From contig CAYIBP010000001.1 in NCBI GenBank assembly GCA_964361705.1, positions 26,727-90,726 of the forward strand: 64,000 nucleotides of DNA, given 5' to 3'. The stretch comes from an uncultured Candidatus Saccharibacteria bacterium (GTDB taxonomy: Bacteria > Patescibacteriota > Minisyncoccia > Phycocordibacterales > UBA9973). Below are positions 41,081-61,856 of this stretch, piece after piece. The notes below the pieces were generated by a model. The model was not told the DNA's origin, did not search any database, and worked only from the letters and a program-made list of their open reading frames with translations. The translations under genes and the position numbers were made by a program. Position 1 is the stretch's first letter, and every line of letters starts with the position of its first letter.

Positions 41081-41614
41081 ATGTCAAGCAAATCTGGATA
41101 TTCCAGTAAAATACTTAAAATATTGGCTGAAAAACCGGCACTTTCTCTGGAAGCTGTAAAAGAAAACTCGAACAAAAAAGACAAAAGAGAAGAGTATTCT
41201 TTAAACAGATCTGTCAAAAGTCTCACTGAAGCCGGCTGTGTTGAAATAATACGCTCAGAACACAAGGATTATTTACGACTCACTAAAAAAGGAAAAAATA
41301 GATTGAATAGTTTGCGTATCGGAGACACAGATGCCTTGGTACCACAAACTTGGGATGGGTTTTGGCGAATTGTGATATTGGATTTACCCGAAGACAGAAA
41401 AAACGAACGCGAATCTTTGCGATACCTTTTGAAAAAAGCAAACTTCGTTTGTGTGAAAAATACTGTTTGGATTTCGCCACACCCATACGAACATCTTTTT
41501 ACAAATATAAAAAAAGATTTAGGACTCTCTACAGAAATGATGATAATAACGACAAACAACCTAGATGAAGAAACTCATAAAGCATTCCTCAAAGAGATAG
41601 GTGGGCAATCTTAA
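41081..41614 (+). CDS. uncharacterised winged-helix + Cas2/VapD-like fold protein (paralog of 4789-5349)
   Basis: 177 aa; WDGFWRIVILDLPEDRKNERESLRYLLKKANFVCVKNTVWISPHP aligns with the C-terminal block of 4789-5349. Divergently transcribed from dnaK. Confidence 0.45.
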   Translation: MSSKSGYSSKILKILAEKPALSLEAVKENSNKKDKREEYSLNRSVKSLTEAGCVEIIRSEHKDYLRLTKKGKNRLNSLRIGDTDALVPQTWDGFWRIVILDLPEDRKNERESLRYLLKKANFVCVKNTVWISPHPYEHLFTNIKKDLGLSTEMMIITTNNLDEETHKAFLKEIGGQS

Positions 41615-45115: not shown

Positions 45116-45994
45116 TTAGATAGGACAAACCGTTATTCCAGTTTTTCTTTTTAAAAGTTTCTGCATATTACCAAGTCCTTCTACTACGGCATCTATCCGA
45201 TCTTGAGAATCCTCCTCAGTTACTTTATTTTGAGCTATAAATTCTTTATACGCATTCCAACTTTCTTCGGTAAGACGACAAGAAGACGATTCGGTGTACG
45301 CCAACAAAACTCCGTTATAAGAATTCAAATTACCTTTTCTTACCAATTTACTTTGTCCTATTTTTAGATTATTTGAAGCTTGATCTACTTCATCTTGAGT
45401 ATTATCTTCTGTAACCAAATTAGATTTTATAACTTCCTGATATTCAGCCCAACTTTTTTTGGTATATCTTTCTGAAGGTAATTGATCATATTTGTAACCA
45501 GGAATTAAAGTATAATCATAATTTGCCAAAACTGCTTGGTATTCAGATAAATCTGGGATAGGTTGATCGCACGATAAACGCCTTATTCTTAATCTTGTTT
45601 TTAAATCTGCTAAACCACTAATTTCTAAATTGTTACTCTTTTGGAAAGACTTAACCGCTCTCAAAGTCATTGGGCCAAACACACCATCATTTTTACCGCT
45701 TAAATATTTTTTTGATTTAAGAAATTTCTGTAAGAAATATACAGGTCCATTGGCATTTTTGTCCCTATCTTTGTAGGTAATGTCTTGAGTAAGATCGATG
45801 CAACTCTCATCGTAACCTGAAACTACAATGTTTGACACTGAAGGATATGCAGCGCAAGGCATACCTGTCAAGTTGCTGTATTTATAACCCATGGAACAAG
45901 AATCTATTTCTGCTGCCTTTGTTTGACCAGCAAATGTGAATAAAACAAAAAGCAAAAGCACTAATGAAATATTCTTTTTCATATTATTTTTCAA
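45116..45994 (-). CDS. secreted protein with peptidoglycan-binding (PG_binding_1-like) domain and two FIVAR-like repeats
   Basis: Signal peptide MKKNISLVLLLFVLFTFAGQTKA. PG-binding-like VYFLQKFLKSKKYLSGKNDGVFGPMTLRAVKSFQKSNNL. Two repeats of type YTKKSWAEYQEVIKSNLVTEDNTQDEVDQASNNL, similar to repeats in the N-terminus of the 2367-aa protein. Confidence 0.55.
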   Translation of the reverse strand: MKNNMKKNISLVLLLFVLFTFAGQTKAAEIDSCSMGYKYSNLTGMPCAAYPSVSNIVVSGYDESCIDLTQDITYKDRDKNANGPVYFLQKFLKSKKYLSGKNDGVFGPMTLRAVKSFQKSNNLEISGLADLKTRLRIRRLSCDQPIPDLSEYQAVLANYDYTLIPGYKYDQLPSERYTKKSWAEYQEVIKSNLVTEDNTQDEVDQASNNLKIGQSKLVRKGNLNSYNGVLLAYTESSSCRLTEESWNAYKEFIAQNKVTEEDSQDRIDAVVEGLGNMQKLLKRKTGITVCPI

Positions 45995-46154
45995 TCGAAT
46001 TATTTGATAATGCGTCTGTTTTTTCTTTTTTGAGGGATTTTGAAATTATCAGAGAGAGAGAGAGCCATGTACACAAAACAAAACCCGAAAGCGATAGCTT
46101 CCTTATCTAGACTAATAAATTGATCTCTAATACTCCAAGGGGTAATAATAACGA

Positions 46155-46439
46155 TTATAATATATATATATATATATTAGTAAACCTTCTCCAGAAAATA
46201 AAAACTGATTCTTTTAATTTTAAGACAATCAAAGAAAAGACAAGAATTGGAACAGAAATCATCGTAAATATTAAAAACAAATCGAAAGCTTTATTGCATA
46301 TATTATAGATATTTGTTTTTTGACAAAAATCGAAAAAATAATATGGCATTATAAAACGAAAAACAATAAACACTATAGATAAAACAAAGGAAATTGTAGT
46401 TATCTTTTCTTTTGTAAACCACTCAAGTAATTTCTTCAT
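46155..46439 (-). CDS. small membrane protein S1 (paralog of S2/S3, truncated), C-terminus encoded by (TA)8
   Basis: MKKLLEWFTKEKITTISF... aligns with the S2/S3 N-termini (MDKLLEWFTRKRI…). Ends NIYIYIL* where S2/S3 have FIYLFIYLFIYLF. Confidence 0.45.
   Translation of the reverse strand: MKKLLEWFTKEKITTISFVLSIVFIVFRFIMPYYFFDFCQKTNIYNICNKAFDLFLIFTMISVPILVFSLIVLKLKESVFIFWRRFTNIYIYIL
46161..46176. repeat. (TA)8 dinucleotide repeat inside the 3' end of S1
   Basis: Read directly: tatatatatatatata. Confidence 0.8.
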
Positions 46440-46445
46440 AAAATT

Positions 46446-47114
46446 TTAGTTAAATATTAATGTCTGCAAATCAAAAGAAACTGGTAAATATAGTGTGGTA
46501 TTTTCTTTCGGTTCGACTTCTAATTTTTTTGTCTCTGAAATGATTCCGTTAATTTCTTTATCTACATCTAATAATATCATTTCTTGGTTGTTTCCATCTA
46601 TGTTTACTGTGTATTGAACTCCTTCTTTTACAGATATATATTTAGTATTTCCTACTTCCATATATCTTGAATTTGGTATTTCTTCAAATACTTGATTGGT
46701 AGCTTTGTCAAAACCTGTTTTCTTGCCTGTACTGTCCACGATATACATATCACCACCGGAATAGAGATTTAGAACGATGTCAGTGTTTATTTCTGAGAGC
46801 AAGGTTGTGGGACGAGAATTTATTACAATACTTTCTGGATCAGAAAAAGTGTTATTTTGTATTTTTGCCTTTATAAAATTTCTTAGGTTTGAAATTTCCA
46901 AGATATCTTTGTGAGTTCTGTCCTTTGGAAAACTATCCTCTTTCTTCAAATCCACCCACCACCTCTCTACTTTATCAGATGCATTCATCCATAGAGCAGA
47001 TGAAGTGGCTACTGTCTGATCTCCTTCAAAAGTAGTTTTTGTTTTCGAATGAAATTTATCTTTATCAACAATATAATCTATCCCCGCCAAGGTCTTTTCC
47101 CCCCCATCCACCAA
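46446..47114 (-). pseudogene. out-of-frame C-terminal continuation (222 codons) of surface protein A
   Basis: Translation VDGGEKTLAGIDY…DRTHKDILEISNLRNFIKAKIQ… is collinear with the C-termini of proteins B and C, but in a different frame from 47065-49935. Frames diverge at the C7 (plus-strand) homopolymer at 47099-47105. Confidence 0.6.
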
Positions 47115-49912
47115 CTTGTATCACTTTCGTATTTTCTGGAGCTTGCCAGTTATCAAGTATTTGATGCACTTGTTCCGCGTTGTTGTACAAAGTTTCGTTT
47201 CCATTGTTTGGATTGTCCAAATCATCTCCTGTTGGTTTTTCTCTCCCCTCTTTACCAAGAATGAAATCTTTAAACTCCGTGAAATTTGATATTTCATTTC
47301 CGTATTTTTCTGTTTGTTTTGAAAAAAGTTCGTGATTTGGGAAAGTAATTATCTTGTTTAGATTTAAACTAGGATCACCTTGAATATCGAAATATTCCTT
47401 TGAAGGAAGGAGGTTGTATGTTGTGGGCATATTTTCTGCGAGGTATCTTTGGTTTGTGGCAGTCATAACAACACCGTATACTAACCTAGTTCCATGCAGA
47501 AGAGAAAGAAATCCCTCCGGCGTTCCCACTTGTGGTGTAGCTACGAATATCACTTTATCTATTTTATCATACAGTGGATCGTTTTGATCTTTGAGTTTCT
47601 GTATTAATGCCTTGATGACTAGTCCACCATTTGAGTGTCCTATCAGTGTGACTTTTCCTGATTTTGAATTTGATTGCAAATCTCGAAGTTTCTTGAGTAT
47701 GAAAGATTCTGAGAAAGTTTGATCTTCTGTGTATGAGAGTTTGCCTCTTTCTTTTACTTTTCCGTTTGTGATAATGTCATCTAGTGATAAACGCCAATCG
47801 TAAGGAATAAAAGCATAATCATTTATGGTCTTATCTTTTTCTTTCCAGTCTCGTAGATCATCTATGAATGACTGGTAAATATTAATACCATAAGCATCAT
47901 CAACGATTCCTGTTTCATCTGAAAATGAATCGTTTACTGTATCATTTTTAGTGTAAAGGTCTAAAACCTTTTTGCCATTTTCATTCAACGCCATTCTCTT
48001 TTGTTCATCGGGTAAAATTCTGATGGAAACCCACAACTCTTTATCTTCAACGCAATTCATAAACAGATCTTCACAATAATCGGCTGATGGTCCTGGCAGA
48101 GCCTTTACCTCCTCATACAACCTCGAACCCATGATCCCAGGGAAGAACATTACATTTGAGAAACAATCTGTGGTGCAAATAACAGGTGCGACTTCTTGTT
48201 GTTTAGTTTTAAAGTATAGTTTTTCTGACAACCATCCACCTTGGTTTTGAGCGTCTTTCGCTCTGACATGCCAATAGTACAATGATCCTGGATTAAGATT
48301 TGCTGTGTATGAATTTGTGGATATGTCTTCCTTGTCTACTTCAAGGTTTCCTGTAGTCATGTTGCGGACATACAAAGCATATTTTGAAGCTCCGGGTACA
48401 GTGTTCCATGAGAATGCTTGGGTGGTACTTGATATTTCTGGAACAGATGAATTTTTTGCTGTTTCATCTGATGAGAAATACTTACCTGGGGATATTTGTT
48501 CTGGATTCGGTAAATATATATTCTTTGGAGTACAAAGACCATTTAATTCAAATTGGTTCAGATCAAACTCTGATAGAGTAGATGAACAAGCAGGTAACAC
48601 CTTGAATTCATTCGATGTTGCTGTAGCAGAATTGTATGTCGCTGTTAGTTTTACTTGATTTATAGCAGAAGTGAGTTTTACTTTTCCAGAATATTGATTG
48701 CTCTGTATTGTTACAGATTTTGGGTAGATATTTCCCATACTAGATGACAGAGAAATATTTGAACCATTTGGGATATTTTGAGTGTTCAAAATGATATCAA
48801 ATTCAGAACCATTTTGAACTTGAGAAATGTTGTTCCAAGATACTGTGGAGACTCCTGGAGGTGGTGGTGGAATTTCTTTCTTGTTCACAGTGATTGTGAT
48901 GTCTTGTGTGACAGCTTGGCTATTTGATCCTAAACATCTAAAAGTAAATGTCGTAGTCTGATACATCGGTCCGATGTTGTAAGTGGTATTGTGCAAAGGG
49001 TAATTTACTAATCCTGCCCCAGAAATATCACAGGAAGAAGTGTTGGTGCTAGAAAGGGTAAATGTTCCATTCTGTCCTTCTTCCACTGTTTGAGTGGTTG
49101 GAGTTACAGAGATGGTAGGAGTAGCAGGTTCATTGTTTACTATGTAAAAATACCATCTATCTGTGAACCATCCAGAACGACCGAGTGAGTCGTGAGCGTT
49201 TGCGTTCCAGCCGTAACTATGTCCTTTTTGAAGATTTACTGTGCAAGAAGTGGTAGCCAGATTTTGACATACAGGTAATAGTAATCCTCCGTTGTAATAA
49301 TCACGAATATTAATATCGTAAGTGGAAGCTCCTACTGAAGGAGTGATAGTGAATGTTTGGGTTGAAGTCATGACTGAAGCACCATCATCGGGAGAAATTA
49401 GAAATGGTTCCTTTAGATTTGGGTTTGCAGGAGCACAGAGGCCTTCGAGTTTGAATGTTTTCTTTTTGTTTAGATCTATTTTTAATGTTTCCTGTTCTTT
49501 GTTTAAATGTTCATATTCCCCTTCTTCTGCTAGACAGCTTAAGCTAGAGGAAGCGGTGAAGGAGGAGGTACCTACTGTTTGGCCGTTGTATTTTGCTGTG
49601 ATAGTGACGGGTCCATAGGCTGAAGTGATTGTAAACTCTTCGTAGTAGTTCGGATATGGTGGACGGATTGAATTCGGAGAAAGATTGCCCATCGAAAGGT
49701 GTAGGGTTATCTCCTCGGACTGGCTTTCATTTACGGGGATGCCTTCCGTTTTAAAATTGATGAGAAATGTGTCTCCGTTTCTTATGTTTCCAATGTTACC
49801 AAAGGTGACCTTTGGTGTGGTGTTTGAGACATTTACGGTGAAGGGTTGCTGGGCAAAGACTTGTAGTGGTGAAAGTATGAATATGAGAAGAAGGAATGTG
49901 GAAAGGAGATTT

Positions 49913-49935
<23 letters not shown>
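47065..49935 (-). CDS. secreted multidomain surface protein A (Ig/FN3-like repeats + lipase-like alpha/beta-hydrolase domain), frameshifted near 3' end
   Basis: Signal peptide MSQLPKTKNLLSTFLLLIFILSPLQVFA. Lipase-like nucleophile elbow LIGHSNGGLVIKALIQKL and FVATPQVGTPEGF. Homologous to B and to the C-terminal ~1100 aa of C. ORF terminates prematurely after …VIQVGGWGGKDLGGDRLYC* owing to a +1 G in a G-run relative to B. Confidence 0.6.
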
Positions 49936-50344
<409 letters not shown>

Positions 50345-50350
50345 AAAATT

Positions 50351-53293
50351 TTAGTTAAAAGTTAATGCTTGCAAATCAAAAGAAACTGGTAAATCTAATG
50401 TAATCTTTTCTTTTGATTCTATTTGTAATGTCTTTGTTTCTGAAACAATTCCATTCATTTCTTTATCTACATCTAATAGTATCATTTCTTGGTTATTTAC
50501 ATCTATGTGTACTGTGTATTTAGTACCTTCTTGTACAGAGATATACTTAGTATTTCCTATTTCCATGTATCTGGAATTTGGTATTTCTTCAAAAACCTGA
50601 CCTGTGGTTTTATCGAAACCTGTCTTTCTGCCGTCATTATCAGTGACATACATTTCACCCCCAGAATATAGGTTTAGAACTATATCAGTATTTACCTCTG
50701 AAAGAGAGGTTGCGGGACGGGAGTTTATGACGATGTTTTCTGGGTCAGAAAAAGAAGTATCTTGTATTCTTGCCTTTAAAAAATTTCTTAGATTTGAGAC
50801 TTCTAGAATGTTTTTATGTGACTTGTCTGGAAAACTTTCTTCATTATAACTCTTCAAATCCACCCACCACCTCTCTACCCTGTCAGAGGTATTAATCCAC
50901 AAAGAAGATGAAATAGCCACGGTTTCATCTCCTTCCTTTGTCGTTCTAGCCTTTGGATACATAGTCCTATTGGAAGGAGGACAGTTGAGAGGTAAACAAC
51001 CAGTTGATTTTGTTCCATACTCTATCCCTGCCAATGTCTTCTCCCCCCATCCCCCTACCTGTATCACTTTTGTATTTTCCGGTGCTTGCCAGTTATCAAG
51101 TATTTGATGCACTTGTTCCGCGTTGTTGTACAGATTTTCATTGCCATTGTTTGCATTGTCTAGGTCATCCCCTGTTGGTTTTTCTCTTCCTTCTTTACCT
51201 AGAATGAAATCTTTAAACTCTGTGAAATTTGATATTTCTGTACCATATTTCTCTGTTTGTTTGGAAAATAGTTCGTGATTTGGGAAAGTTATTATCTTGT
51301 TCAGATTTAATGAAGGATCACCTTGGATGTCGAAGTACCCTTTTGATGGGAGTAGATTGTATGTGGTGGGCATATTCTCTGCGAGATACCTATTGTTTGT
51401 GGCGGTCATCACAGCTCCAAAAGCAGCTAATCTAGTGCCATGTAATAAAGAAAGAAATCCTTCCGGAGTTCCCACTTGCGGAGTGGCTACTAATATTACT
51501 TTATCTATCTGATTGTAAAGAGGATCGTTTGCATCTTTTAATTTTTGTATTAAGGCTTTGATCACCAATCCTCCGTTTGAATGGCCTATCAATGTGACTT
51601 TACCTGATTTTGAATTTGATTGCAGATCTCGAAGTTTCTTAAGAATGAAAGACTCGGAAAAGTTTTGTGAGTCAGCATATGATAGCTTGTTTCTTTCCCC
51701 CACTTTTCCATTAGTGATGATATCTTCGAGTGATAATCTCCAATCGTAAGGCACTAATGAGTAGTCTGTTATCACATTACTATTTTTCAAATCCTTCAGA
51801 TCATCAGCAAAAGATTTGTAAATATTAAGACCTATGAAGCCTGGAACTTCTTCTACTAATCCTTTGTCTTCTTTTGTGTAAATATCGTAGATCTTCTTGC
51901 CATTCGAATCTAATGCCATTCTTCTATGATCATCATGCAAGGCAGCAAGAGAGACCCACAACTCTTTATCCCAGAAACATTCACTGCCGTTTAGTACTTC
52001 ACCACAATCCAATGAACCTTTCTCCTCATACAACCTCGACCCCATAATCCCAGGAAAGAACATAACATTTGAAAAACAGTCTGTGGTGCAGGTAGTAGGG
52101 ACAATTTCTTGGGATTTAGTTTTAAAGTATAGTTTTTCTGATAACCATCCACCTTGATTGTTGCTGTCTTTAGCTCTGATGTGCCAGTAGTACAATGATC
52201 CTGGATTTAGATTTGCTGTATATGAGTTTGTAGATATGTCTTCTTTGTCTACTTCAAGGTTTCCTGTTGTCATATTACGAACATACAGTGCATATTTTGT
52301 AGCTCCGGAGACTGTTGTCCATTTGAAAGTCTGGGTTGTAGAGTCTACTTCCTCCCCTGTCCAGGCCTTGCCTGGACTTAGGGGTTCCGGATTCTGTAGA
52401 TATATATTCTTCGGAGTACACAAACCAGAAAGCTCAAATTCAGATAGTTCGAGTTCTGAAAGAGAAGAATAACATGTAGGATCAATATCGAATGTATTTG
52501 AAGTTGTTAAAACATTTCCATTGTACGAGACTTTTAATTTCACTTTGTTGATAGCTGAAGTTACTTTGATATTTCCTGTATAAGTATTGTTCTGTATTGT
52601 TACTGTCTTTGGAATCACAGTCCCCATAGCAAAAAGTGGTTGGTCTTCATCATTTGGGACACCGAAAGAAGTGAGTTCAAGATTCGTTCCATCTGCAATA
52701 TTTGTGGTATTGATCGTTATCGGAAAAAGTTCGCTCGTTTTGGTATTTAAGATTTGAGAGATGATGGCTGTGGGGATGCCTGGTGGTGGTACCACTTCTT
52801 TCTTGTTCACAGTGATAATGATGTCTTGAGATACTGCTTGGCCATTTGATCCAATACATCTGAAAGTAAATATGGCAGTTCGATACATAGGTCCAATACC
52901 GTAATCACCATTAGCAAGACGGTGGTTTACGAGTCCAGCTCCTGTTATGTCACAAGAAGTGGTATTAGTGGAAGAAAGAACAAAGCTTCCGTCTGTTCCT
53001 TCCTCTATTGTTTGAGTTGTGGGAGTTACTGATATTGTAGGTGGAGTGTTGGGATTTTGAGATCTAACATTAAAATACTTTCTGTCTGCAAACCATCCTG
53101 ATCTATTTTGAGAATCAAAGGCATTAGCATTCCATGTGTAGTTGTGTCCTTCTTTTAAGACTACATCTACAAATTGACCTGTAGTTTTGTAGACAGTGAG
53201 TTCATTGTTTACAGAGATGTCTCTGATATTTACTTCATATCTGATAGCGTTGGGGACATATGCTATCTCTAGGGTTTGATTTGGTCCATACAC
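50351..53293 (-). CDS. secreted multidomain surface protein B (5'-truncated copy of the C-terminal half of C)
   Basis: Listed ORF starts at GTG, but the frame stays open upstream into the adjacent IS-like element, so there is no native signal peptide. Contains GHSNGG lipase-like domain and Ig/FN3-like repeats. Residues ~1-730 are identical or nearly identical to the corresponding part of C. Confidence 0.5.
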   Translation of the reverse strand: MYGPNQTLEIAYVPNAIRYEVNIRDISVNNELTVYKTTGQFVDVVLKEGHNYTWNANAFDSQNRSGWFADRKYFNVRSQNPNTPPTISVTPTTQTIEEGTDGSFVLSSTNTTSCDITGAGLVNHRLANGDYGIGPMYRTAIFTFRCIGSNGQAVSQDIIITVNKKEVVPPPGIPTAIISQILNTKTSELFPITINTTNIADGTNLELTSFGVPNDEDQPLFAMGTVIPKTVTIQNNTYTGNIKVTSAINKVKLKVSYNGNVLTTSNTFDIDPTCYSSLSELELSEFELSGLCTPKNIYLQNPEPLSPGKAWTGEEVDSTTQTFKWTTVSGATKYALYVRNMTTGNLEVDKEDISTNSYTANLNPGSLYYWHIRAKDSNNQGGWLSEKLYFKTKSQEIVPTTCTTDCFSNVMFFPGIMGSRLYEEKGSLDCGEVLNGSECFWDKELWVSLAALHDDHRRMALDSNGKKIYDIYTKEDKGLVEEVPGFIGLNIYKSFADDLKDLKNSNVITDYSLVPYDWRLSLEDIITNGKVGERNKLSYADSQNFSESFILKKLRDLQSNSKSGKVTLIGHSNGGLVIKALIQKLKDANDPLYNQIDKVILVATPQVGTPEGFLSLLHGTRLAAFGAVMTATNNRYLAENMPTTYNLLPSKGYFDIQGDPSLNLNKIITFPNHELFSKQTEKYGTEISNFTEFKDFILGKEGREKPTGDDLDNANNGNENLYNNAEQVHQILDNWQAPENTKVIQVGGWGEKTLAGIEYGTKSTGCLPLNCPPSNRTMYPKARTTKEGDETVAISSSLWINTSDRVERWWVDLKSYNEESFPDKSHKNILEVSNLRNFLKARIQDTSFSDPENIVINSRPATSLSEVNTDIVLNLYSGGEMYVTDNDGRKTGFDKTTGQVFEEIPNSRYMEIGNTKYISVQEGTKYTVHIDVNNQEMILLDVDKEMNGIVSETKTLQIESKEKITLDLPVSFDLQALTFN

Positions 53294-53305
53294 TATTTCA
53301 GGATT
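51112..53305. repeat. ~2.2-kb near-identical direct repeat, copy 1 (matches 55424-57617)
   Basis: Constant offset of 4312 bp; identical sub-ORFs (51229-51435 = 55541-55747; 52236-52472 = 56548-56784). Boundaries judged by eye from flanking mismatches. Confidence 0.75.
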
Positions 53306-53428
53306 GTTTTTGTCTTCTGAACCAGGACTTACTAGATATGGTTCTGCTAGATTTGGGTTTGGTGGAACGCAGAGACCTTCGAGTCCATACCGGGTATGGA
53401 CAGTGTTGGTGTTTAGGTTGATGAGAAG

Positions 53429-54156
53429 AAGGGTGTCAGGTACCCTTTCTAGGTCTCCAGGGTAAACGAATTGTCGCTTCCAATCTAAATTTCTTAATAA
53501 TCTTCATCGACCAATCATCACTTCCATAAGGCTTCCCTTTCGTCACCGAATGTCTAATAGTTTCTTCCTCTTCACTAGGTTGTGATTCATTGACTAGTGA
53601 TAGATAATTATTGGGTTTTGATATAGGCCAATCTGATAACAATTTCTTTTGTTCGGTACTTCCATGTATTTTACGCCACAAACTAGAGAATCTCCAATTT
53701 TCTGCCTTTCGTACCAATTTAGCGCGAAGAGGATTACGTTCAACATAACGAATGACTGAGAGCAGATGATTATCTTTTTCAACAATAAATGATTTGTAAC
53801 GACCTTGATAAAGATGGCCTGTACCCTTTGTGTTTTTTTCTTGGTGCCAACGCTGAGTATGTGTCAATGTAAGCCATTGCATAAATTTACATAGATCTCC
53901 GTCACTTTTTGGATAAAGGACAAGATGAAAATGATTTGGCATTAGTATGTATGCAAGAATACGCATATTATACTTATCTTTTGCTTCTTCTAAGACATTT
54001 TCAAATAGAGTGTAATCTTCTTCTTTAAAGAAGATCGGTAGACGCGCGTTTGCGCGATTGATAACATGATAACAATATTCACCAATATCTGTACGTAGAA
54101 CTCTTCCCATATTTTGATTATATCAGATTTTAATTAAAAGGGTACCTGACACCCTT
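53429..54156. mobile_element. compact IS-like unit: HUH/Y1 transposase gene flanked by perfect 20-bp terminal inverted repeats
   Basis: Left end AAGGGTGTCAGGTACCCTTT (53429-53448) and right end AAAGGGTACCTGACACCCTT (54137-54156) are exact reverse complements. They enclose the transposase ORF 53436-54110. Confidence 0.65.
53436..54110 (-). CDS. IS200/IS605-family-like Y1 (HUH) transposase, RAYT/TnpA_REP-like
   Basis: HUH motif MPNHFHLVLYP and catalytic Tyr region GHLYQGRYKSFIV; 224 aa, in the size range of REP-associated tyrosine transposases. Confidence 0.7.
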   Translation of the reverse strand: MGRVLRTDIGEYCYHVINRANARLPIFFKEEDYTLFENVLEEAKDKYNMRILAYILMPNHFHLVLYPKSDGDLCKFMQWLTLTHTQRWHQEKNTKGTGHLYQGRYKSFIVEKDNHLLSVIRYVERNPLRAKLVRKAENWRFSSLWRKIHGSTEQKKLLSDWPISKPNNYLSLVNESQPSEEEETIRHSVTKGKPYGSDDWSMKIIKKFRLEATIRLPWRPRKGT

Positions 54157-54239
54157 ACCTTCAGCAACTTGTATTATTTTGATCCATACTTTTTCATTCT
54201 AATTATTATTAATCTAAATTTATTGCAGAAAAAAGATTT

Positions 54240-54656
<417 letters not shown>

Positions 54657-54662
54657 TGTATT

Positions 54663-57600
54663 TTAGTTAATTGTTAATGCTTGCAAATCAAAAGTAGCAG
54701 ACAAGTCTAGTGTAATTCTTTCTTTTGATTCTGTTTGTAATGACTTCGTTTCTGAAACAATTCCATTTATTTCTTTATCTACATCTAATAATATCATTTC
54801 TTGGTTATTTCCATCTATGTGTACTGTGTATTTAATGCCTTCTTCTACAGAAATGTATTTTGTATTTCCTACTTCCATGTATCTGGAGTTTGGAATTTCT
54901 TCTTTCGTCTCTCCATTTACTATACCTGTAATTCTACCTGTACTATCTGATATATACACATAGCCTCCAGAATAAAGATTCAGAACAATGTCTGTTTTCA
55001 TTTCTGAAAGAGAATAATTGGGTTTTGAATTTACAATTATATTTTCTGGATCGGAAAATGAAGCATCTTTAATCTCTGCCTTTATAAAATTTCTTAAATT
55101 AGAAACCTCGAGGATATCTTTATGCGTTCTGTCTTTTTCAAAAAATCCTCCCTCTTTCTTCAAATCTACCCACCATCGTTCTGTGTTAGCATCTGTATTC
55201 ATCCAAAGGGCAGAGGATGTTACTACTGTTTCATCGCCTTCAAAGGAGGTCTTTGTTTTAGGGAAAGGTTTTATAATTGGAATCCCGCAAATACCAAACT
55301 CACATTTTTCACCATATTTTTTAGCCATATACTCTATACCTGCAAATGTTTTTATCCCCCACCCCGCAACCTGTATCACCTTCGTATTTTCTGGAGCTTG
55401 CCAATTATCTAGCATTTGATGAATCTTTTCAGCGTTGTTGTACAGATTTTCATTGCCATTGTTTGCATTGTCTAGGTCATCCCCTGTTGGTTTTTCTCTT
55501 CCTTCTTTACCTAGAATGAAATCTTTAAACTCTGTGAAATTTGATATTTCTGTACCATATTTCTCTGTTTGTTTGGAAAATAGTTCGTGATTTGGGAAAG
55601 TTATTATCTTGTTCAGATTTAATGAAGGATCACCTTGGATGTCGAAGTACCCTTTTGATGGGAGTAGATTGTATGTGGTGGGCATATTCTCTGCGAGATA
55701 CCTATTGTTTGTGGCGGTCATCACAGCTCCAAAAGCAGCTAATCTAGTGCCATGTAATAAAGAAAGAAATCCTTCCGGAGTTCCCACTTGCGGAGTGGCT
55801 ACTAATATTACTTTATCTATCTGATTGTAAAGAGGATCGTTTGCATCTTTTAATTTTTGTATTAAGGCTTTGATCACCAATCCTCCGTTTGAATGGCCTA
55901 TCAATGTGACTTTACCTGATTTTGAATTTGATTGCAGATCTCGAAGTTTCTTAAGAATGAAAGACTCGGAAAAGTTTTGTGAGTCAGCATATGATAGCTT
56001 GTTTCTTTCCCCCACTTTTCCATTAGTGATGATATCTTCGAGTGATAATCTCCAATCGTAAGGCACTAATGAGTAGTCTGTTATCACATTACTATTTTTC
56101 AAATCCTTCAGATCATCAGCAAAAGATTTGTAAATATTAAGACCTATGAAGCCTGGAACTTCTTCTACTAATCCTTTGTCTTCTTTTGTGTAAATATCGT
56201 AGATCTTCTTGCCATTCGAATCTAATGCCATTCTTCTATGATCATCATGCAAGGCAGCAAGAGAGACCCACAACTCTTTATCCCAGAAACATTCACTGCC
56301 GTTTAGTACTTCACCACAATCCAATGAACCTTTCTCCTCATACAACCTCGACCCCATAATCCCAGGAAAGAACATAACATTTGAAAAACAGTCTGTGGTG
56401 CAGGTAGTAGGGACAATTTCTTGGGATTTAGTTTTAAAGTATAGTTTTTCTGATAACCATCCACCTTGATTGTTGCTGTCTTTAGCTCTGATGTGCCAGT
56501 AGTACAATGATCCTGGATTTAGATTTGCTGTATATGAGTTTGTAGATATGTCTTCTTTGTCTACTTCAAGGTTTCCTGTTGTCATATTACGAACATACAG
56601 TGCATATTTTGTAGCTCCGGAGACTGTTGTCCATTTGAAAGTCTGGGTTGTAGAGTCTACTTCCTCCCCTGTCCAGGCCTTGCCTGGACTTAGGGGTTCC
56701 GGATTCTGTAGATATATATTCTTCGGAGTACACAAACCAGAAAGCTCAAATTCAGATAGTTCGAGTTCTGAAAGAGAAGAATAACATGTAGGATCAATAT
56801 CGAATGTATTTGAAGTTGTTAAAACATTTCCATTGTACGAGACTTTTAATTTCACTTTGTTGATAGCTGAAGTTACTTTGATATTTCCTGTATAAGTATT
56901 GTTCTGTATTGTTACTGTCTTTGGAATCACAGTCCCCATAGCAAAAAGTGGTTGGTCTTCATCATTTGGGACACCGAAAGAAGTGAGTTCAAGATTCGTT
57001 CCATCTGCAATATTTGTGGTATTGATCGTTATCGGAAAAAGTTCGCTCGTTTTGGTATTTAAGATTTGAGAGATGATGGCTGTGGGGATGCCTGGTGGTG
57101 GTACCACTTCTTTCTTGTTCACAGTGATAATGATGTCTTGAGATACTGCTTGGCCATTTGATCCAATACATCTGAAAGTAAATATGGCAGTTCGATACAT
57201 AGGTCCAATACCGTAATCACCATTAGCAAGACGGTGGTTTACGAGTCCAGCTCCTGTTATGTCACAAGAAGTGGTATTAGTGGAAGAAAGAACAAAGCTT
57301 CCGTCTGTTCCTTCCTCTATTGTTTGAGTTGTGGGAGTTACTGATATTGTAGGTGGAGTGTTGGGATTTTGAGATCTAACATTAAAATACTTTCTGTCTG
57401 CAAACCATCCTGATCTATTTTGAGAATCAAAGGCATTAGCATTCCATGTGTAGTTGTGTCCTTCTTTTAAGACTACATCTACAAATTGACCTGTAGTTTT
57501 GTAGACAGTGAGTTCATTGTTTACAGAGATGTCTCTGATATTTACTTCATATCTGATAGCGTTGGGGACATATGCTATCTCTAGGGTTTGATTTGGTCCA

Positions 57601-60600
57601 TACACTATTTCAGGATTATTCTTGTCTTCTCTACCAGGACTGACTAGATACGGCTCCCCTAGGTCAGGATTCTGTGGAAGGCACAGACCTTCGAGTGAAG
57701 ATAAGGATTTGATTTCTCCTTTTTCAAGATCAATGAAACTTGCTAGGTCTTGCCTAGCAAGATCTGTATCTGCTAGACATCCTGCTCCGCTTGAGACGGT
57801 GAAAGAATTTGAAATGCCTACAAGCTCAAATTTACTGCCAGCTGTGTTTGCTCTGTAATATGCTCCTATTATGATGCTTCCTGTAGCTGAAGTGATGGTA
57901 AAAGGAACGGTATTTACTGTACCTGTGGTAATGATATGTTGAGGGTTAATATTTCCCATCAATGGAACGATATCAATGACTGATCCAACTGGAATGTTTT
58001 GAGTTGTGAGGGTTATCGTGTTTGTGTCGCCATTTCTTGTGTTTGGGATATTGCTAAAGGTCACCTTTGGTAAGGTGTTTGAGACATTTACGGTGAAATT
58101 TTGCTGTATAGAGGAACCATTTAATCCTACACATTTCATGGTAAAGGTCTTACTCGTGAACATAGCACGTGTAGGATAGCGTCCGTTTAGCGAACCAGCA
58201 AGAGTGTACAAAAATCCTGTCGCGTCCCAGACAGAGCAAGAAGATGTGTATGTAGTCGTCAAATCATACAGAGCCTGTTCTCCATAACCCACAGTCTGTA
58301 CAGCAGGAGTAACGGACATAGTAGGTGGTTGCAGTGGAGGGGTTTTTACCGTGACATAATTACAAGGAGAATATCCCAAAGTTAATCCAGGATAGTCAAA
58401 AGCTCTGACAGAAATGCAATAGCTCCCGACAGCACTATATGTGTGTCCAGCAAACTCTGGAGTTCCGGAAGAATTGAAAGCAGTAGAACCCATAGTGCCG
58501 TCACCCCAGTTGATCTGATACCAGATTCTATCGCCTTCTCCATCTGTGGAGACCATAGAAATATTGTAGTTGTTGTTTACATTCACACTGCCCGATCCAG
58601 AGATAGTTGGCACAGAAGGTGGAGTGTTTTGTGAAGGTTGTGTTTGGAAATAGTAATAAGGTGGATAAAGAGAAGTACCGACAGCATTCACGCTTCTGAC
58701 ACCCCAAACATATCTGTGACCTAGAGCAAGCGCAGGCGAAGTGGTAGATGTGCCATACACAGTTCTATCTTTAAAAATATCTAAACCTGTAGTGAGATCA
58801 GCTATATATGCTAAATAATGAGTAGCATTTGAAACAGGATTCCAAGAAATGGTCACAGTATTTCCTGAAAGTATAGGACCGTAAGCAGAAGTATAACCAG
58901 GAGTGAGACCTGTCGGTGTCGCAGGTACTGTGGCAGGATTTATGACAGTGAAATAAAATAATGAAGAAAAAACTCCCTTTGTGCCGTTGGACTCATAGGC
59001 TACCATATTCCATCGGTATGATCTGCCGGGGATGAAAGAATAATTTGGAGTAAAATTCGTACCATAATTGCACGAAGGCCAATTGCAATCCACTATCAAT
59101 TCATTTGTTACATTATCTCTGACATGTACACCGTATTGCAAAGCACCGGAAACAGCAGACCAATAAAATGTAACTTTACCATTTGTATGTGCGACAGATA
59201 TCCCCGGCTGAACTACACTACCCGGAGCGAGGAGTTGTGGCGCAGACAATGCTTGCAGGCTAAAAGTATCCGGCACAAATGTTTTTGGATCGATTATCTC
59301 GCCTGCTTTGGATTGAGGATTTATAGAGTTGCCTTCAGTGTCTTTTTTGAGTTTTATATCTATCTCACTTTGTGAAAGTTTTGCGCCAGAGAGAGAACGA
59401 CCGCCACCGAATACTTTTCCGTTTTTAGAATAGCTGGCAAGAGTGGGAATTTTCGGTAATTGTTCTATCGCTTTTTTGGCATCAATATTGTCATTTGATT
59501 TTGCCACCAAATAAGCGGAAATTATCGGTGCGGAAAATGAAGTACCATTCATTTCTCCATATTCGCCTCCTGATTTTGCAGAGAGTATTCCCACACCTTC
59601 AGCAAACACATCCACTGTTTTTCCATAGTTTGAAAATGAAGCTATGTTTCCAGAACCATCGAGTGCGCCGACTGTAATCAGGTTGCCATTATTGAAACTC
59701 GCTGGATATATTTTTGTCTCATCAATATTGAAACCATAATTTCCAGCAGAAGTCACCATATATACTCCGTGATCCTGCGCATACCTTATCGCTTCTTCGA
59801 GTTGCTTTGAATATGTAGGCCCTGCAAAAGACATGTTTATTATTTCCGCTCCGTTGTGCACCGCGAAAAGTATCGCTCGCACTATATCATCTGTCTGTAA
59901 TAGTCCATAATCCGCCACGCGTAGAGACATTATCTTTACATTGCCTCTGGATACAGAAGATATGCCCATACCATCATCAGCCGATGCTCCGATGATAGAT
60001 GCCACCGCCGTGCCGTGTGAATATCCGTCTGTCGGATATGGGTCTTTGTCATCCCCTACGAAATCATACCCACCATCGCAAGAACCTATTGCTTCTGTTT
60101 TTTCATTTACACAATTCTGTGTCGTCCATTTTGAAAGAAATAGATCGGGGTGAGAAAAATCCACTCCAGCATCTATCACCGCCACCACAGGCAATGAACC
60201 TGTATTTGCTTTTGTATTCCAAATCTTTTTATTTGTTTCTAAAATACGATGCAGATATGTCTGCTTGTGCCACAGAGGGTCGTTGGGAGTATAGTCCCCC
60301 GCCTTCTCCGGGGCAAGTTGCAAAGCCATAAAATACGGGCTTTCCACTGCACCACCCCCTTCTTTTTCCACTTCTGTTGCAAGCTGTTGGTTGATTTGTT
60401 TTAGGGTTTCAAAGGCTCCAGCATCACTGATTTTTTGTCCTTGCGCCCTTCCCTCGATTACAGGGGCGGATCCCTCGGGCAGCAAAAAATCAGTAATGCT
60501 TGCGCTTGCCTTTATTTTCGCATTTTCTTTTATTATTTGTATTTCTTTTTCAACGCTCGCAACTTCGCTCGCTTTCATTTTGTTCACATCGAGAGCCTGC

Positions 60601-61766
60601 AAACCGTTTAAAATATTGAAAAGTCTGTTTGCTTTCTCGGAATTTATATCCCGTTCCTCTTTTGGAGTTTTCTTGTTTTTTGGAATTTTTGTTTTTACGG
60701 CAACAGGAATAGTTGGATCGTAAAAACCCTGTAGTTCACCATCACTATTTTTCACCAAAAGGCTTTGCGCTTTTTTCAAGAGATCGACAACATTGTCCAC
60801 TTCGGCTTGCGTATTCTCTGTAGTTAATTTGTTGTTAGCTTCCAATACTAATATATATGCATTCCAAGAGTCTTCTGTATAACTATTCTTGGCTTCTGTC
60901 GGCACTTGTTCTAATACTTTTCTGTATTCTGTTAGATCCGCTTTGATAACGATAGAATTTTGTGCTTCGGATATTTTTTGTGTTGCTTCATCTACCCTAT
61001 TTTGAGTATCTTCTGTGTTTACTGCGTTAGTATCTAAAACATTTTTGTATATATTCCAGCTAGTATTTGTATATAGATATGAAAAAGATTCTGGATATGC
61101 CAAGAGCACACCGTTGTATGAATTCAGGTTTGATTTTTTTAGAAGTAAGCTCTGCCCTATTTTGATATTGTTTACTGCTGTGTCTATTTCAGCTTGAGTA
61201 TTGTCTGTGGTAACGATGTTTGTATTCAAGGCTTGCTGATATGTTTGCCAGCTCGTATTGGTATAATTTACGGATGCAGTATCGGGATAATTCAAAATCA
61301 CAGCGCTATATTCTGACAAATCCCCCTTTGGTTTCGGAGGAATTATCTCTCCCTCTATTACTATGCCATCTGTTAGAACAATAATAGGAGAACCGTGGTG
61401 AGCGGTACAATCATTGCCACCGTAAGCTTTCAGTAATACAGTATATTTTCCTGGTCTAGATGGAGCCTTTATCTGAAACTTTATTGTGGCTGTAGTACCT
61501 GCTTTGTGGTTTGCTGTATCTATGCATATCCATTCGTTGTTGCCTATTTTGTATTTAGTGGAGAACCAGTTTGACGGAGAGGTGGAGGTTACCGTCATAT
61601 TCACATTTACCATAGCGTTTCCCTTTACTATTACGCTTTGTTTGCCTCCGAGGTTGGCAGAGTCTATGATGCGAGCGGCAGAAACCTGGGGAACGATGGA
61701 TACCAAAGGGCTAAAAGCTGTAATAAGCAACAAAACCGAAATCGAAAAATTCTTGAAAATACGCAT
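54663..61766 (-). CDS. giant secreted multidomain protein C (2367 aa): Ig-like N-terminal domain, 3 FIVAR-like repeats, subtilisin-like S8 peptidase domain, FN3-like and PKD-like domains, lipase-like alpha/beta-hydrolase domain
   Basis: Signal peptide MRIFKNFSISVLLLITAFSPLVSIVPQVSA. S8 catalytic triad context (VAVIDAGVDFSHPD; GYSHGTAVASIIGA; NGTSFSAPIISAYL). PKD-like YQINWGDGTMG…GHTYSAVGSYCISVRAFDY. Lipase-like LIGHSNGGLVIKALIQKL and LVATPQVGTPEGF. FIVAR-like YTNTSWQTYQQALNTNIVTTDNTQAEIDTAVNNI. Confidence 0.7.
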   Translation of the reverse strand: MRIFKNFSISVLLLITAFSPLVSIVPQVSAARIIDSANLGGKQSVIVKGNAMVNVNMTVTSTSPSNWFSTKYKIGNNEWICIDTANHKAGTTATIKFQIKAPSRPGKYTVLLKAYGGNDCTAHHGSPIIVLTDGIVIEGEIIPPKPKGDLSEYSAVILNYPDTASVNYTNTSWQTYQQALNTNIVTTDNTQAEIDTAVNNIKIGQSLLLKKSNLNSYNGVLLAYPESFSYLYTNTSWNIYKNVLDTNAVNTEDTQNRVDEATQKISEAQNSIVIKADLTEYRKVLEQVPTEAKNSYTEDSWNAYILVLEANNKLTTENTQAEVDNVVDLLKKAQSLLVKNSDGELQGFYDPTIPVAVKTKIPKNKKTPKEERDINSEKANRLFNILNGLQALDVNKMKASEVASVEKEIQIIKENAKIKASASITDFLLPEGSAPVIEGRAQGQKISDAGAFETLKQINQQLATEVEKEGGGAVESPYFMALQLAPEKAGDYTPNDPLWHKQTYLHRILETNKKIWNTKANTGSLPVVAVIDAGVDFSHPDLFLSKWTTQNCVNEKTEAIGSCDGGYDFVGDDKDPYPTDGYSHGTAVASIIGASADDGMGISSVSRGNVKIMSLRVADYGLLQTDDIVRAILFAVHNGAEIINMSFAGPTYSKQLEEAIRYAQDHGVYMVTSAGNYGFNIDETKIYPASFNNGNLITVGALDGSGNIASFSNYGKTVDVFAEGVGILSAKSGGEYGEMNGTSFSAPIISAYLVAKSNDNIDAKKAIEQLPKIPTLASYSKNGKVFGGGRSLSGAKLSQSEIDIKLKKDTEGNSINPQSKAGEIIDPKTFVPDTFSLQALSAPQLLAPGSVVQPGISVAHTNGKVTFYWSAVSGALQYGVHVRDNVTNELIVDCNWPSCNYGTNFTPNYSFIPGRSYRWNMVAYESNGTKGVFSSLFYFTVINPATVPATPTGLTPGYTSAYGPILSGNTVTISWNPVSNATHYLAYIADLTTGLDIFKDRTVYGTSTTSPALALGHRYVWGVRSVNAVGTSLYPPYYYFQTQPSQNTPPSVPTISGSGSVNVNNNYNISMVSTDGEGDRIWYQINWGDGTMGSTAFNSSGTPEFAGHTYSAVGSYCISVRAFDYPGLTLGYSPCNYVTVKTPPLQPPTMSVTPAVQTVGYGEQALYDLTTTYTSSCSVWDATGFLYTLAGSLNGRYPTRAMFTSKTFTMKCVGLNGSSIQQNFTVNVSNTLPKVTFSNIPNTRNGDTNTITLTTQNIPVGSVIDIVPLMGNINPQHIITTGTVNTVPFTITSATGSIIIGAYYRANTAGSKFELVGISNSFTVSSGAGCLADTDLARQDLASFIDLEKGEIKSLSSLEGLCLPQNPDLGEPYLVSPGREDKNNPEIVYGPNQTLEIAYVPNAIRYEVNIRDISVNNELTVYKTTGQFVDVVLKEGHNYTWNANAFDSQNRSGWFADRKYFNVRSQNPNTPPTISVTPTTQTIEEGTDGSFVLSSTNTTSCDITGAGLVNHRLANGDYGIGPMYRTAIFTFRCIGSNGQAVSQDIIITVNKKEVVPPPGIPTAIISQILNTKTSELFPITINTTNIADGTNLELTSFGVPNDEDQPLFAMGTVIPKTVTIQNNTYTGNIKVTSAINKVKLKVSYNGNVLTTSNTFDIDPTCYSSLSELELSEFELSGLCTPKNIYLQNPEPLSPGKAWTGEEVDSTTQTFKWTTVSGATKYALYVRNMTTGNLEVDKEDISTNSYTANLNPGSLYYWHIRAKDSNNQGGWLSEKLYFKTKSQEIVPTTCTTDCFSNVMFFPGIMGSRLYEEKGSLDCGEVLNGSECFWDKELWVSLAALHDDHRRMALDSNGKKIYDIYTKEDKGLVEEVPGFIGLNIYKSFADDLKDLKNSNVITDYSLVPYDWRLSLEDIITNGKVGERNKLSYADSQNFSESFILKKLRDLQSNSKSGKVTLIGHSNGGLVIKALIQKLKDANDPLYNQIDKVILVATPQVGTPEGFLSLLHGTRLAAFGAVMTATNNRYLAENMPTTYNLLPSKGYFDIQGDPSLNLNKIITFPNHELFSKQTEKYGTEISNFTEFKDFILGKEGREKPTGDDLDNANNGNENLYNNAEKIHQMLDNWQAPENTKVIQVAGWGIKTFAGIEYMAKKYGEKCEFGICGIPIIKPFPKTKTSFEGDETVVTSSALWMNTDANTERWWVDLKKEGGFFEKDRTHKDILEVSNLRNFIKAEIKDASFSDPENIIVNSKPNYSLSEMKTDIVLNLYSGGYVYISDSTGRITGIVNGETKEEIPNSRYMEVGNTKYISVEEGIKYTVHIDGNNQEMILLDVDKEINGIVSETKSLQTESKERITLDLSATFDLQALTIN
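55424..57617. repeat. ~2.2-kb near-identical direct repeat, copy 2 (matches 51112-53305)
   Basis: See copy 1. Confidence 0.75.
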
Positions 61767-61829
61767 AAATGTATTGGGTTTTTAATAATATTAAGAGCTT
61801 TTATGATAGGACTTATTCAATGAAAAGTC

Positions 61830-61856
61830 AAATGCCAAGGATTTCCCTTGGCATTT
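61830..61856 (-). terminator. intrinsic terminator-like hairpin AAATGCCAAGG-atttc-CCTTGGCATTT downstream of rpsI
   Basis: Perfect 11-bp stem; T-rich 3' flank on both strands; 8 bp beyond the rpsI stop. Confidence 0.5.

Follow-up and report, generated by a model that had tools for sequence, protein, structure and literature searches.

A tandem array of lipase-like hydrolase genes and small membrane-protein genes in a groundwater Patescibacteria contig

What is the function of an array in which three large genes for hydrolase-bearing proteins are each followed by a gene for a small membrane protein, and how did the array come to hold just one intact pair? The question is raised by a window of 64,000 nucleotides, the whole stretch of DNA analysed here, which is part of contig Hain_H51_01um_R2_58 (105.7 kb, coverage ~16) in the European Nucleotide Archive (ENA). 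The contig comes from the 0.1-um filter fraction of Hainich groundwater. The large genes are called C, B and A, and the small genes that follow them S3, S2 and S1. The answer that the evidence favours, by a little more than an even chance, is that the locus is a lineage-specific expansion of a two-gene module conserved across Patescibacteria, made up of an exported lipid-acting enzyme and a cognate membrane partner.

An initial annotation of the window had described three giant secreted proteins, each paired with a small membrane protein, in the order C-S3, an insertion-sequence-like element, B-S2, A-S1 and a peptidoglycan-binding protein. Open reading frame (ORF) calls reproduced this order, and every listed ORF was found at its place, all of them on the minus strand (Table 1). 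The term “giant secreted protein” fits C; B is without a start or export signal, and A is frameshifted. Likewise, the pairing stands for S3 and S2, which are intact, while S1 is broken. The sole intact pair in the array is C with S3. The host had been suspected to belong to the candidate phyla radiation (CPR), or Patescibacteria. This agrees with the 0.1-um groundwater source and with the name “Patescibacteria group bacterium” that NCBI gives to identical proteins (ribosomal L13 and the transposase).

Table 1. Positions of the array's genes, domains and repeats within the window.
Feature	Position	Strand	Basis
Gene C, 2367 aa, the one large gene that is intact	54663-61766	-	ORF, translation, Pfam
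Peptidase_S8 domain of C, residues 526-753	59508-60191	-	Pfam, E 7e-38
PKD domain of C, residues 1056-1125	58392-58601	-	Pfam PF00801
Hydrolase module of C, residues 1785-2367	54666-56414	-	Pfam LCAT, AF2 model, Foldseek
Ser1959 of C	55890-55892	-	Hydrolase triad
Asp2178 of C	55233-55235	-	Hydrolase triad
His2215 of C	55122-55124	-	Hydrolase triad
C-terminal beta-sandwich of the hydrolase module of C	~54666-55076	-	
S3, 138 aa, four-transmembrane partner of C	54240-54656	-	ORF, family HMM match
Perfect (TTTA)10 in S3, encoding the third transmembrane helix (FIYLFIYL...)	54391-54432	-	TRF
Remnant of the original start of B, start codon and first signal-peptide residues (MFQRLQTKNLFSAINLD*)	54212-54262	-	Direct repeat D10
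REP-associated tyrosine transposase (RAYT/Y1)-type element, 724 bp	53431-54154	-	Pfam, NCBIfam, inverted repeats
Y1 transposase gene, 224 aa	53436-54110	-	Pfam Y1_Tnp, E 2e-17
B, 5'-truncated copy	ORF of 980 aa from GTG, 50351-53293; homology 50351-53384	-	
B/C identical tract, 2186 bp, 100%	51120-53305 = 55432-57617	-	
S2, 143 aa, intact four-transmembrane partner downstream of B	49913-50344	-	ORF, family HMM
Perfect (TTTA)10 in S2	50062-50102	-	TRF
A	ORF of 956 aa 47065-49935 and ORF of 222 aa 46446-47114; whole 46446-49935	-	
S1, disrupted partner gene	ORF 46155-46439; homology 46054-46439	-	
PG_binding_1 protein	ORF 45116-45994; 288-aa version 45116-45982	-	Pfam
Terminator-like hairpin after rpsI (61830-61856), then promoter-like site TTGACT-17-TATCAT upstream of C	61803-61856	-	Consensus matches only

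The two-gene module

The first gene of the module encodes a Sec-exported protein. Its N-terminal beta-sandwich or adhesin-like domains are variable, and its C-terminal part consists of an LCAT/LPLA2-type hydrolase followed by a beta-sandwich. The Pfam family LCAT (PF02450) matches A, B, C and the isolated module with 44.5-49.6 bits against a cut-off of 21, and it also matches all 53 aligned homologues. The lipase-like elbow and conserved block that the initial annotation saw in each large protein are present in all three copies, as GHSNGG and VATPQVGTPEGF. A triad of Ser (in H-S-x-G-G), Asp (in G-D-x-x-V) and His is invariant in the 53 homologues. It corresponds to S175, D394 and H431 of the module, and is found in C, in B and in A once its frame is corrected. 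In an AlphaFold2 (AF2) model of the module (pLDDT 89.8, pTM 0.92) the Ser lies on a nucleophile elbow, between a strand (169-174) and a helix (176-190).

Sequence searches against the Protein Data Bank (PDB) came back nearly empty. A single-sequence phmmer search of the module gave chance matches only, and a profile search of PDB sequences gave Tle4 only, weakly, via the motifs PGIMG and HSxGG. Fold comparison was therefore needed to place the module. The best Foldseek matches are lysosomal phospholipase A2 (LPLA2; 4x97, E 3e-13, target-normalised TM-score 0.73) and LCAT (5txf, E 2.5e-10). The next match is the antibacterial lipase Tle4 of a type VI secretion system (T6SS; 4r1d, E 1e-7). Judging by the model, the module is best regarded as an LCAT/LPLA2-type serine hydrolase of the phospholipase A or acyltransferase class.

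LPLA2 (PLA2G15) and LCAT, the PF02450 proteins, share with the module the GxSxG elbow, an N-terminal PG-x-x-G-x-x-L motif and the order Ser-Asp-His. The TM-score of 0.73 for the best match extends over a 377-residue target, at an identity of just 13-16%. In contrast to both enzymes, the module is bacterial and Sec-exported, stands at the C-terminus of multidomain proteins of 850-2400 aa, has an extra beta-sandwich and is accompanied by a gene for a protein with four transmembrane (TM) helices.

A search of 1.84 billion cluster representatives with the module gives 2388 matches at E<=1e-3, 1391 of them at E<=1e-30. With the exception of one unclassified “bacterium”, the named relatives are Patescibacteria. 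They come from Nomurabacteria, Zambryskibacteria, Lloydbacteria, Moranbacteria, Paceibacterota and Minisyncoccia, and are annotated just as “alpha/beta hydrolase” or as hypothetical. The family norm is 850-1050 aa without an S8 domain. Signal-peptide-like N-termini occur in about 38 of 52 homologues, and the N-terminal regions vary (beta-helix, Ig-like, MBG, DUF5018). The large protein has no sortase signal, lipobox or TM anchor. In the literature searched, no link of LCAT-like proteins to Patescibacteria was found. The enzyme belongs to a known class; in that literature, neither the two-gene module nor the cassette architecture and slippage tract that go with it were found.

The hydrolases of the window end at about position 720 of the 906 positions of the family profile, and are without a C-terminal domain of ~180 residues that most relatives have. 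This extra domain (profile ~727-906) contains a D-x-N-G-D-G-x-x-D motif that is dockerin-like or Ca-loop-like. The orphan fragments seen in other loci correspond to this domain. The only GTDB-representative match for the module, from a one-protein contig scan, is a hydrolase and small-gene pair on CAZQLN010000002.1. Its label “uncultured Bdellovibrionales” is unconfirmed by the neighbouring genes (G5/DUF348/DPBB Rpf-like, Fic, PNPase) and is not used here.

The second gene of the module encodes a small protein of ~135 aa in the family, which forms four helices in the AF2 model of S3 (pLDDT 83.8). S1, S2 and S3 each begin 6 nt past the stop codon of the large gene. Across the family, a homologue of the small protein lies directly downstream in 72 of the 82 hydrolase ORFs with room for one, at a median gap of ~10 nt; the count covers three loci from an exact protein look-up and 80 metagenome loci. 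Judged by these sequence comparisons, the small membrane protein is a conserved partner of the hydrolase across the family and not an incidental neighbour.

A W-K/R-K-F motif is conserved after TM2 of the small protein and is predicted to be cytoplasmic by the positive-inside rule. The first outer loop holds a conserved Cys, and the predicted extracellular loops are very short. The protein has no Pfam or NCBIfam match, and no PDB fold match at E<1. Within the window, no part of the array evolves faster than the small proteins, with 29-37% identity and a dN/dS of 0.47 compared with 0.09 for the hydrolase core. A lipase-specific foldase (Lif) was considered as a model for the partner and rejected, since the small protein has no soluble domain, just four helices.

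Across the family, the pair does not always stand alone. It is single-copy in 67 of 86 loci. The other 19 loci (numbered with an L) contain extra small genes, 5'-truncated 3' fragments of the hydrolase gene, or both. Most of the fragments are directly followed by a small gene, as in L009, L021, L027 and L101, and four small genes are present in L083. Where small genes share a locus, they are intact and mutually just 19-47% identical. In the same four example loci, and in the window with B and S2, a full-length gene is followed by a truncated fragment with a small gene, a layout that may be called an orphan cassette. By analogy, the layout resembles toxin/immunity loci with orphan cassettes, except that the part conserved here is the enzyme.

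An extended cassette array is seen in L101 (1-10279, from Hain_H51_01um_R3), another CPR locus from Hainich. It starts with a full-length hydrolase gene, two small genes and a hydrolase 3' fragment. After these come a small gene whose frame shifts at (TTTA)6, three further fragments of the hydrolase gene and one more small gene.

Gene C combines the module with a protease. The exact protein is present on the ENA contig (Hain_H51_01um_R2_58). It starts with a signal peptide (residues 1-30), a beta-sandwich, three helical FIVAR-like repeats and an S8 subtilase domain. Next come two FN3-like domains, a PKD domain, an Ig-like domain and a region resembling mature A (from residue ~1221), and the protein ends with the hydrolase and its beta-sandwich. 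The catalytic Asp (VIDAGVD), His (SHGTAVAS) and Ser (GTSFSAP) of the S8 domain, together with the oxyanion Asn (SAGNYG), align to those of Ak.1 protease (1dbi, E 3e-39). The D/H/S triad reported by the initial annotation is thus intact at the level of sequence. The PKD domain it named scores 23.6 bits in the whole protein and 28.6 bits in a sub-sequence, against a cut-off of 23.5. The FIVAR and FN3 domains it named fall below the Pfam gathering scores, FIVAR with 15.8 bits versus 29.2 (E 0.022, three stretches) and fn3 with 16-18 bits versus 25. The repeats are helical, and are FIVAR-like by resemblance only.

Evidence for the origin of C is provided by its similarity to A. From residue ~1221 (IQQNFTVNVSN...), C matches A from the predicted signal-peptidase site of A, where VFA is followed by QQPFTVNVSN... 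Because the match begins exactly at this cleavage site, C can be described as an A-like mature protein behind an S8-bearing protein. As far as protein comparison can tell, the combination of protease and lipase is a lineage-specific fusion, and a word-filtered protein search did not return a second protein with S8 and LCAT. The idea that adhesion-type repeats, protease and lipase are joined in one exported polypeptide applies to C; A and B have no S8 fusion. Sec-type signal peptides are present on C and on A (residues 1-28, cleavage between VFA and QQ). The initial annotation had allowed for degenerate S8 or lipase residues in all paralogues, or for missing export signals; in C, the catalytic residues of both domains are intact and the signal peptide is there.

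What the pair may do

Patescibacteria are without lipid synthesis, and no mechanism of lipid uptake or breakdown has been identified in them (PMC11665869). Lysolipids are enriched in CPR and have been proposed as a lipid source for Patescibacteria, by an uptake route that is unknown (PMC11665869). Given this auxotrophy and the unexplained acquisition of lipids (PMC11665869, PMC12455944), the membrane of a neighbouring cell is the likely substrate for the enzyme.

The proposed process starts with export of C, which would be bound to a surface through its repeat domains. Next, the enzyme would hydrolyse or transacylate phospholipids in the membrane of the neighbouring (host) cell, and the S8 domain would cut surface proteins. 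Lysolipids and fatty acids would be released in a form usable by a bacterium without lipid synthesis. The co-translated 4-TM protein would meanwhile sit in the producer's own membrane as the cognate partner of the enzyme. There it would most likely act as a shield of that membrane, in the manner of an immunity protein; it is less likely to anchor the enzyme. With its presumed substrate, target cell and partner role, this process would be of the kind supposed by the initial annotation, contact-dependent degradation of another cell's envelope.

Self-protection by the partner is favoured by the cassette architecture and by the fast divergence of the small gene. A role as a dock or acceptor is the other main reading. 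Several known systems can be compared.

The closest enzyme with a protective neighbour is Tle4. It is an antibacterial hydrolase of membrane lipids with the same broad fold, and shares the motifs PGIMG and HSxGGLV with the module. The Tle4 gene adjoins the gene of a cognate protective protein, as the hydrolase gene here adjoins a conserved small gene. However, the fold match is weaker (TM-score 0.37-0.40), the enzyme here carries a Sec signal, and T6SS genes (VgrG, PAAR, Hcp context) were seen in none of the loci inspected. The Tle4 partner Tli4 is a soluble periplasmic protein, in contrast to the 4-TM integral membrane protein found here.

Polymorphic toxins, such as contact-dependent inhibition (CDI) systems with cdiA-CT/cdiI and Rhs proteins, are similar in having a full gene with a small gene, followed by truncated 3' fragments and arrays of small genes. 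They differ in which part varies. Here the C-terminal hydrolase is the most conserved part, the N-terminal domains vary, and there is no hypervariable toxin tip. The likeness to toxin/immunity loci rests on layout. No relevant paper came up when the literature was searched for polymorphic toxins in Patescibacteria.

Small immunity proteins with three or four TM helices are known for pore-forming colicins (Cai, Cei) and for class II bacteriocins. They are encoded beside a membrane-acting exported toxin and guard the producer. No similarity to them was detected in sequence or fold, and the array's enzyme is a hydrolase and does not form pores.

Some observations weigh against a protective partner and an antagonistic enzyme. 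LPLA2 and LCAT, the closest structural relatives, are not toxins. The immunity proteins of lipases (Tli) are soluble or lipoproteins, not 4-TM proteins. No T5, T6 or T7 delivery system was found, and export relies on a plain Sec signal. The partner's most conserved residues, those of the W-K/R-K-F motif, are predicted to be cytoplasmic, with no obvious fit to binding an extracellular enzyme. The orphan 3' fragments and their small genes could be remains of decaying tandem duplicates, and not functional cassettes. Finally, two of the three copies in the window are broken, which suggests that the array is not currently needed in full.

A different model, which appears distinctly less probable, is housekeeping acquisition of lipids without antagonism. 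The surface enzyme would take acyl chains off foreign phospholipids and pass them to acceptors in the membrane of the producer, or would free lysolipids for uptake. The 4-TM protein would be a membrane dock, or would present the acceptor, instead of serving in immunity. LCAT and LPLA2, the top fold matches, are transacylases as well as phospholipases. The pair is very widespread in Patescibacteria and mostly single-copy, and a membrane dock would explain how a large protein without an anchor of its own is retained on the cell. The enrichment of lysolipids in CPR, with no known route of uptake, would fit as well. However, up to four diverged small genes for one hydrolase, together with orphan cassettes, would be unexpected for a dock that works one to one. 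Nor would the model predict a partner that evolves so fast and whose extracellular loops are so short.

On the preferred reading, that of an exported lipid-acting enzyme with a cognate membrane partner, the significance of the pair would extend beyond this window. Much of bacterial diversity falls to Patescibacteria, which live on other cells. A candidate for their missing lipid step, or for a self-protected weapon, is the exported LPLA2/LCAT-like enzyme and its fixed membrane partner. The enzyme occurs in ~1,400 sequence clusters, of which the named ones are almost all from Patescibacteria. Tentatively, the pair could be an undescribed system found throughout Patescibacteria: either a machinery for stripping and reusing host lipids, or a Sec-dependent lipase toxin with immunity, having cassettes swapped by recombination and a (TTTA)n switch. 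The question is directly testable, since the module is of a size that allows expression and assays, and is also found in lineages named Minisyncoccia, a class with a cultivated member.

Truncation, and probable slippage and gene conversion, in the array

The window amounts to a natural experiment, with an intact protease-fused copy, a gene-converted truncated copy and a copy that slippage has inactivated. A differs from B/C by a synonymous divergence of ~1-1.5. Together with the low dN/dS of the hydrolase core, this indicates that the copies were long kept functional and that the inactivations are recent.

The history of the array may be reconstructed as follows. Three old tandem copies (dS ~1) would have been held under purifying selection. 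The first copy would have been fused behind the S8 subtilase protein to form C, paired with S3. The second copy, B, would have lost its start and signal peptide to the element, after which gene conversion would have made it uniform with C over 2.2 kb. In A with S1, the third copy, slippage at G7, (TA)n and (CT)n would have caused the inactivation.

The split of A into 956 aa and a frameshifted tail of 222 aa, seen by the initial annotation, can be traced to a surplus G: the run at 47099-47105 is G7 in A and G6 in B. Ser768 comes to lie on one side of the frameshift, Asp972 and His1008 on the other. If one G is removed, A becomes a frame of 1162 codons without a stop. S1 loses its frame at (TA)8-9 (46160-46177) and again at (CT)7 (46051-46064), and its C-terminal half is still recognisable in other frames.

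The intact small genes also contain simple repeats. The window has no perfect tetranucleotide arrays other than the (TTTA)10 tracts of S2 and S3. In ~0.9 Mb of sequence from the window and related loci, nine of nine perfect (TTTA) tracts of at least four units lie at one site of the small gene, in the TM3 codons that follow W-K/R-K-F/T-T. Outside the window, such tracts are found in L009 (8516-8547), L016 (8510-8541), L101 (5249-5272), L103 (697-716) and L015 (11950-11965), among others. Five tracts are in frame (n = 10, 10, 8, 8, 4). In the other four small genes (n = 6, 5, 4, 4) the frame shifts precisely at the tract; the 43-46 codons that remain are open in a different frame, and full length is regained if the tract changes by one unit. 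In all, simple repeats are 5-fold enriched in the small genes (34 versus 6.3 expected).

One explanation for these repeats is that the array is a phase-variable contingency locus, in which (TTTA)n, G7, (TA)n and (CT)n switch genes and the “broken” copies are OFF states. In the contingency loci of Haemophilus and Neisseria, as here, perfect tetranucleotide tracts of 8-10 units lie within surface-related coding regions, and relatives carry alleles in and out of frame. The confinement of the (TTTA) tracts to one site, with alleles of both kinds, speaks for switching, and so does the enrichment of repeats. Long simple repeats lie inside the reading frames of S2, S3, A and S1; all three frameshifts in A and S1 fall within simple repeats, and A is otherwise an intact frame. 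Even so, the explanation is rather unlikely. In a low-power comparison at the level of consensus assemblies, no variation in repeat number was seen within the lineage, the states (TTTA)10, G7, (TA)8 and (CT)7 being constant in three to seven independent assemblies, window included. Ten predicted products of alternative length were absent from a collection of 15 billion proteins, a test whose power is also low, since that collection lacks the real S2 and S3 as well. The AT-rich composition, rich in Phe and Lys codons, explains part of the enrichment, and unlike the tracts of known contingency loci the one found here encodes a TM helix, (FIYL)n. Slippage at a repeat is also the likeliest route of death for a redundant copy, and two corrections would be needed to restore S1.

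B was truncated by a different process. It had been listed as a protein of 980 aa, but is not a complete gene: its homology to C runs upstream past the GTG and ends at the transposase element. The frame is open for 980+ codons, without a start codon that bears a signal peptide. The catalytic residues Ser572, Asp789 and His826 are kept. The suspected insertion-sequence-like element between S3 and B is real, consisting of a Y1_Tnp gene bounded by perfect 15-nt inverted repeats GGGTGTCAGGTACCC (two matches versus 0.01 expected). It stands in place of the ~165 first codons of B, signal peptide included. B has no start and no signal peptide because this element replaced its 5' end.

A remnant of the original start of B persists, reading MFQRLQTKNLFSAINLD* in translation compared with MSQLPKTKNLLS of A. 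The remnant overlaps the 3' end of S3, just as the start of A overlaps the 3' end of S2 (by 23 nt).

The element resembles RAYT systems in its Y1_Tnp domain, its 15-nt inverted repeats and its best NCBIfam match, REP_Tyr_transpos, with 78.6 bits as opposed to 20 bits for IS200. It differs from them in that this score is 1.4 bits short of the cut-off of 80, and that the repeat has no further copies beyond these two within the 64-kb window. A Y1_Tnp gene is also found directly upstream of the hydrolase gene in an unrelated Patescibacteria genome (L007/L008; L007 5246-5869).

B and C are identical over 2186 bp, with flanks that are 60-80% identical on both sides. The 3' boundary of the identical tract falls between the catalytic Ser and Asp. 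An identical tract between diverged flanks points to gene conversion between old paralogues, not to a fresh duplication. Recombination over the tract would delete the tail of C, S3 and the transposase, and C would gain the tail of B together with S2. A truncated copy that shares a long identical tract with the full gene, through which tail and partner could be swapped, is a further likeness to polymorphic toxins.

The layout recurs in other assemblies. L089, from the 0.1-um fraction of another well (H52), is 100% identical to window positions 50844-60549, and takes in C from residue ~406 on, followed by S3, the transposase and B to a point beyond the identical tract. The junctions of B are the same in L089-L094. 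Repeat states are also shared, with G7 in L095 and L096, (TA)8 in L095-L099 and (CT)7 in L095-L100. Since the lesions and the layout are repeated in other Hainich assemblies, they are neither chance nor a one-off assembly error.

One contig from the same well, L090 (Hain_H51_02um_R1, 0.2-um fraction), differs from the window in a 142-bp patch (51461-51602) with 34 mostly synonymous differences. The patch surrounds the GHSNGG codons of B. It is 87% identical to A and 81% identical to B/C, and is identical to none of them. Its sequence suggests that paralogues or strains have recombined in a mosaic fashion, or that another donor copy exists.

It is very improbable that the duplication is an artefact, with B/C identity and tandem layout produced by a collapsed or mis-resolved repeat or by strain mixing: the 2186-bp exact repeat does exceed short-read inserts, L090 does stop exactly at the repeat boundary (51120), and its 34 mismatches within the “identical” region do show strain heterogeneity, but L089, from another well and sample, spans C-S3-transposase-B at 100% identity, B carries a diverged 5' flank, 3' tail and partner gene of its own, and by reasoning from the repeat graph, as opposed to read data, only one path uses every segment.

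The surroundings of the array

The array comes after rpoA-rplQ-rplM-rpsI, in a window whose GC content is 32-42%. Its last gene encodes an exported 288-aa protein with two helical repeats. The initial annotation had called it a peptidoglycan-binding/FIVAR protein. Pfam supports the PG_binding_1 domain. The repeats are 47% identical over 145 aa to the N-terminal repeats of C (60732-61349; BLASTP E 4e-39), so that the array is bracketed by one type of repeat.

Two genes for VirD4/TraG-like type IV coupling proteins are found at 27971-29437 and 33527-35536, ~10-25 kb off the array. Near them are genes for proteins of 550-590 aa without a Pfam match (31852-33522, 35576-37288, 37255-39012). This gene group may be a Patescibacteria type IV secretion cluster.

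Finally, a 588-aa protein encoded at 41611-43377, between the gene of a PaaX-like regulator and grpE, is very rich in Cys pairs, with many CxxC-like motifs at both ends, and is without a Pfam match.

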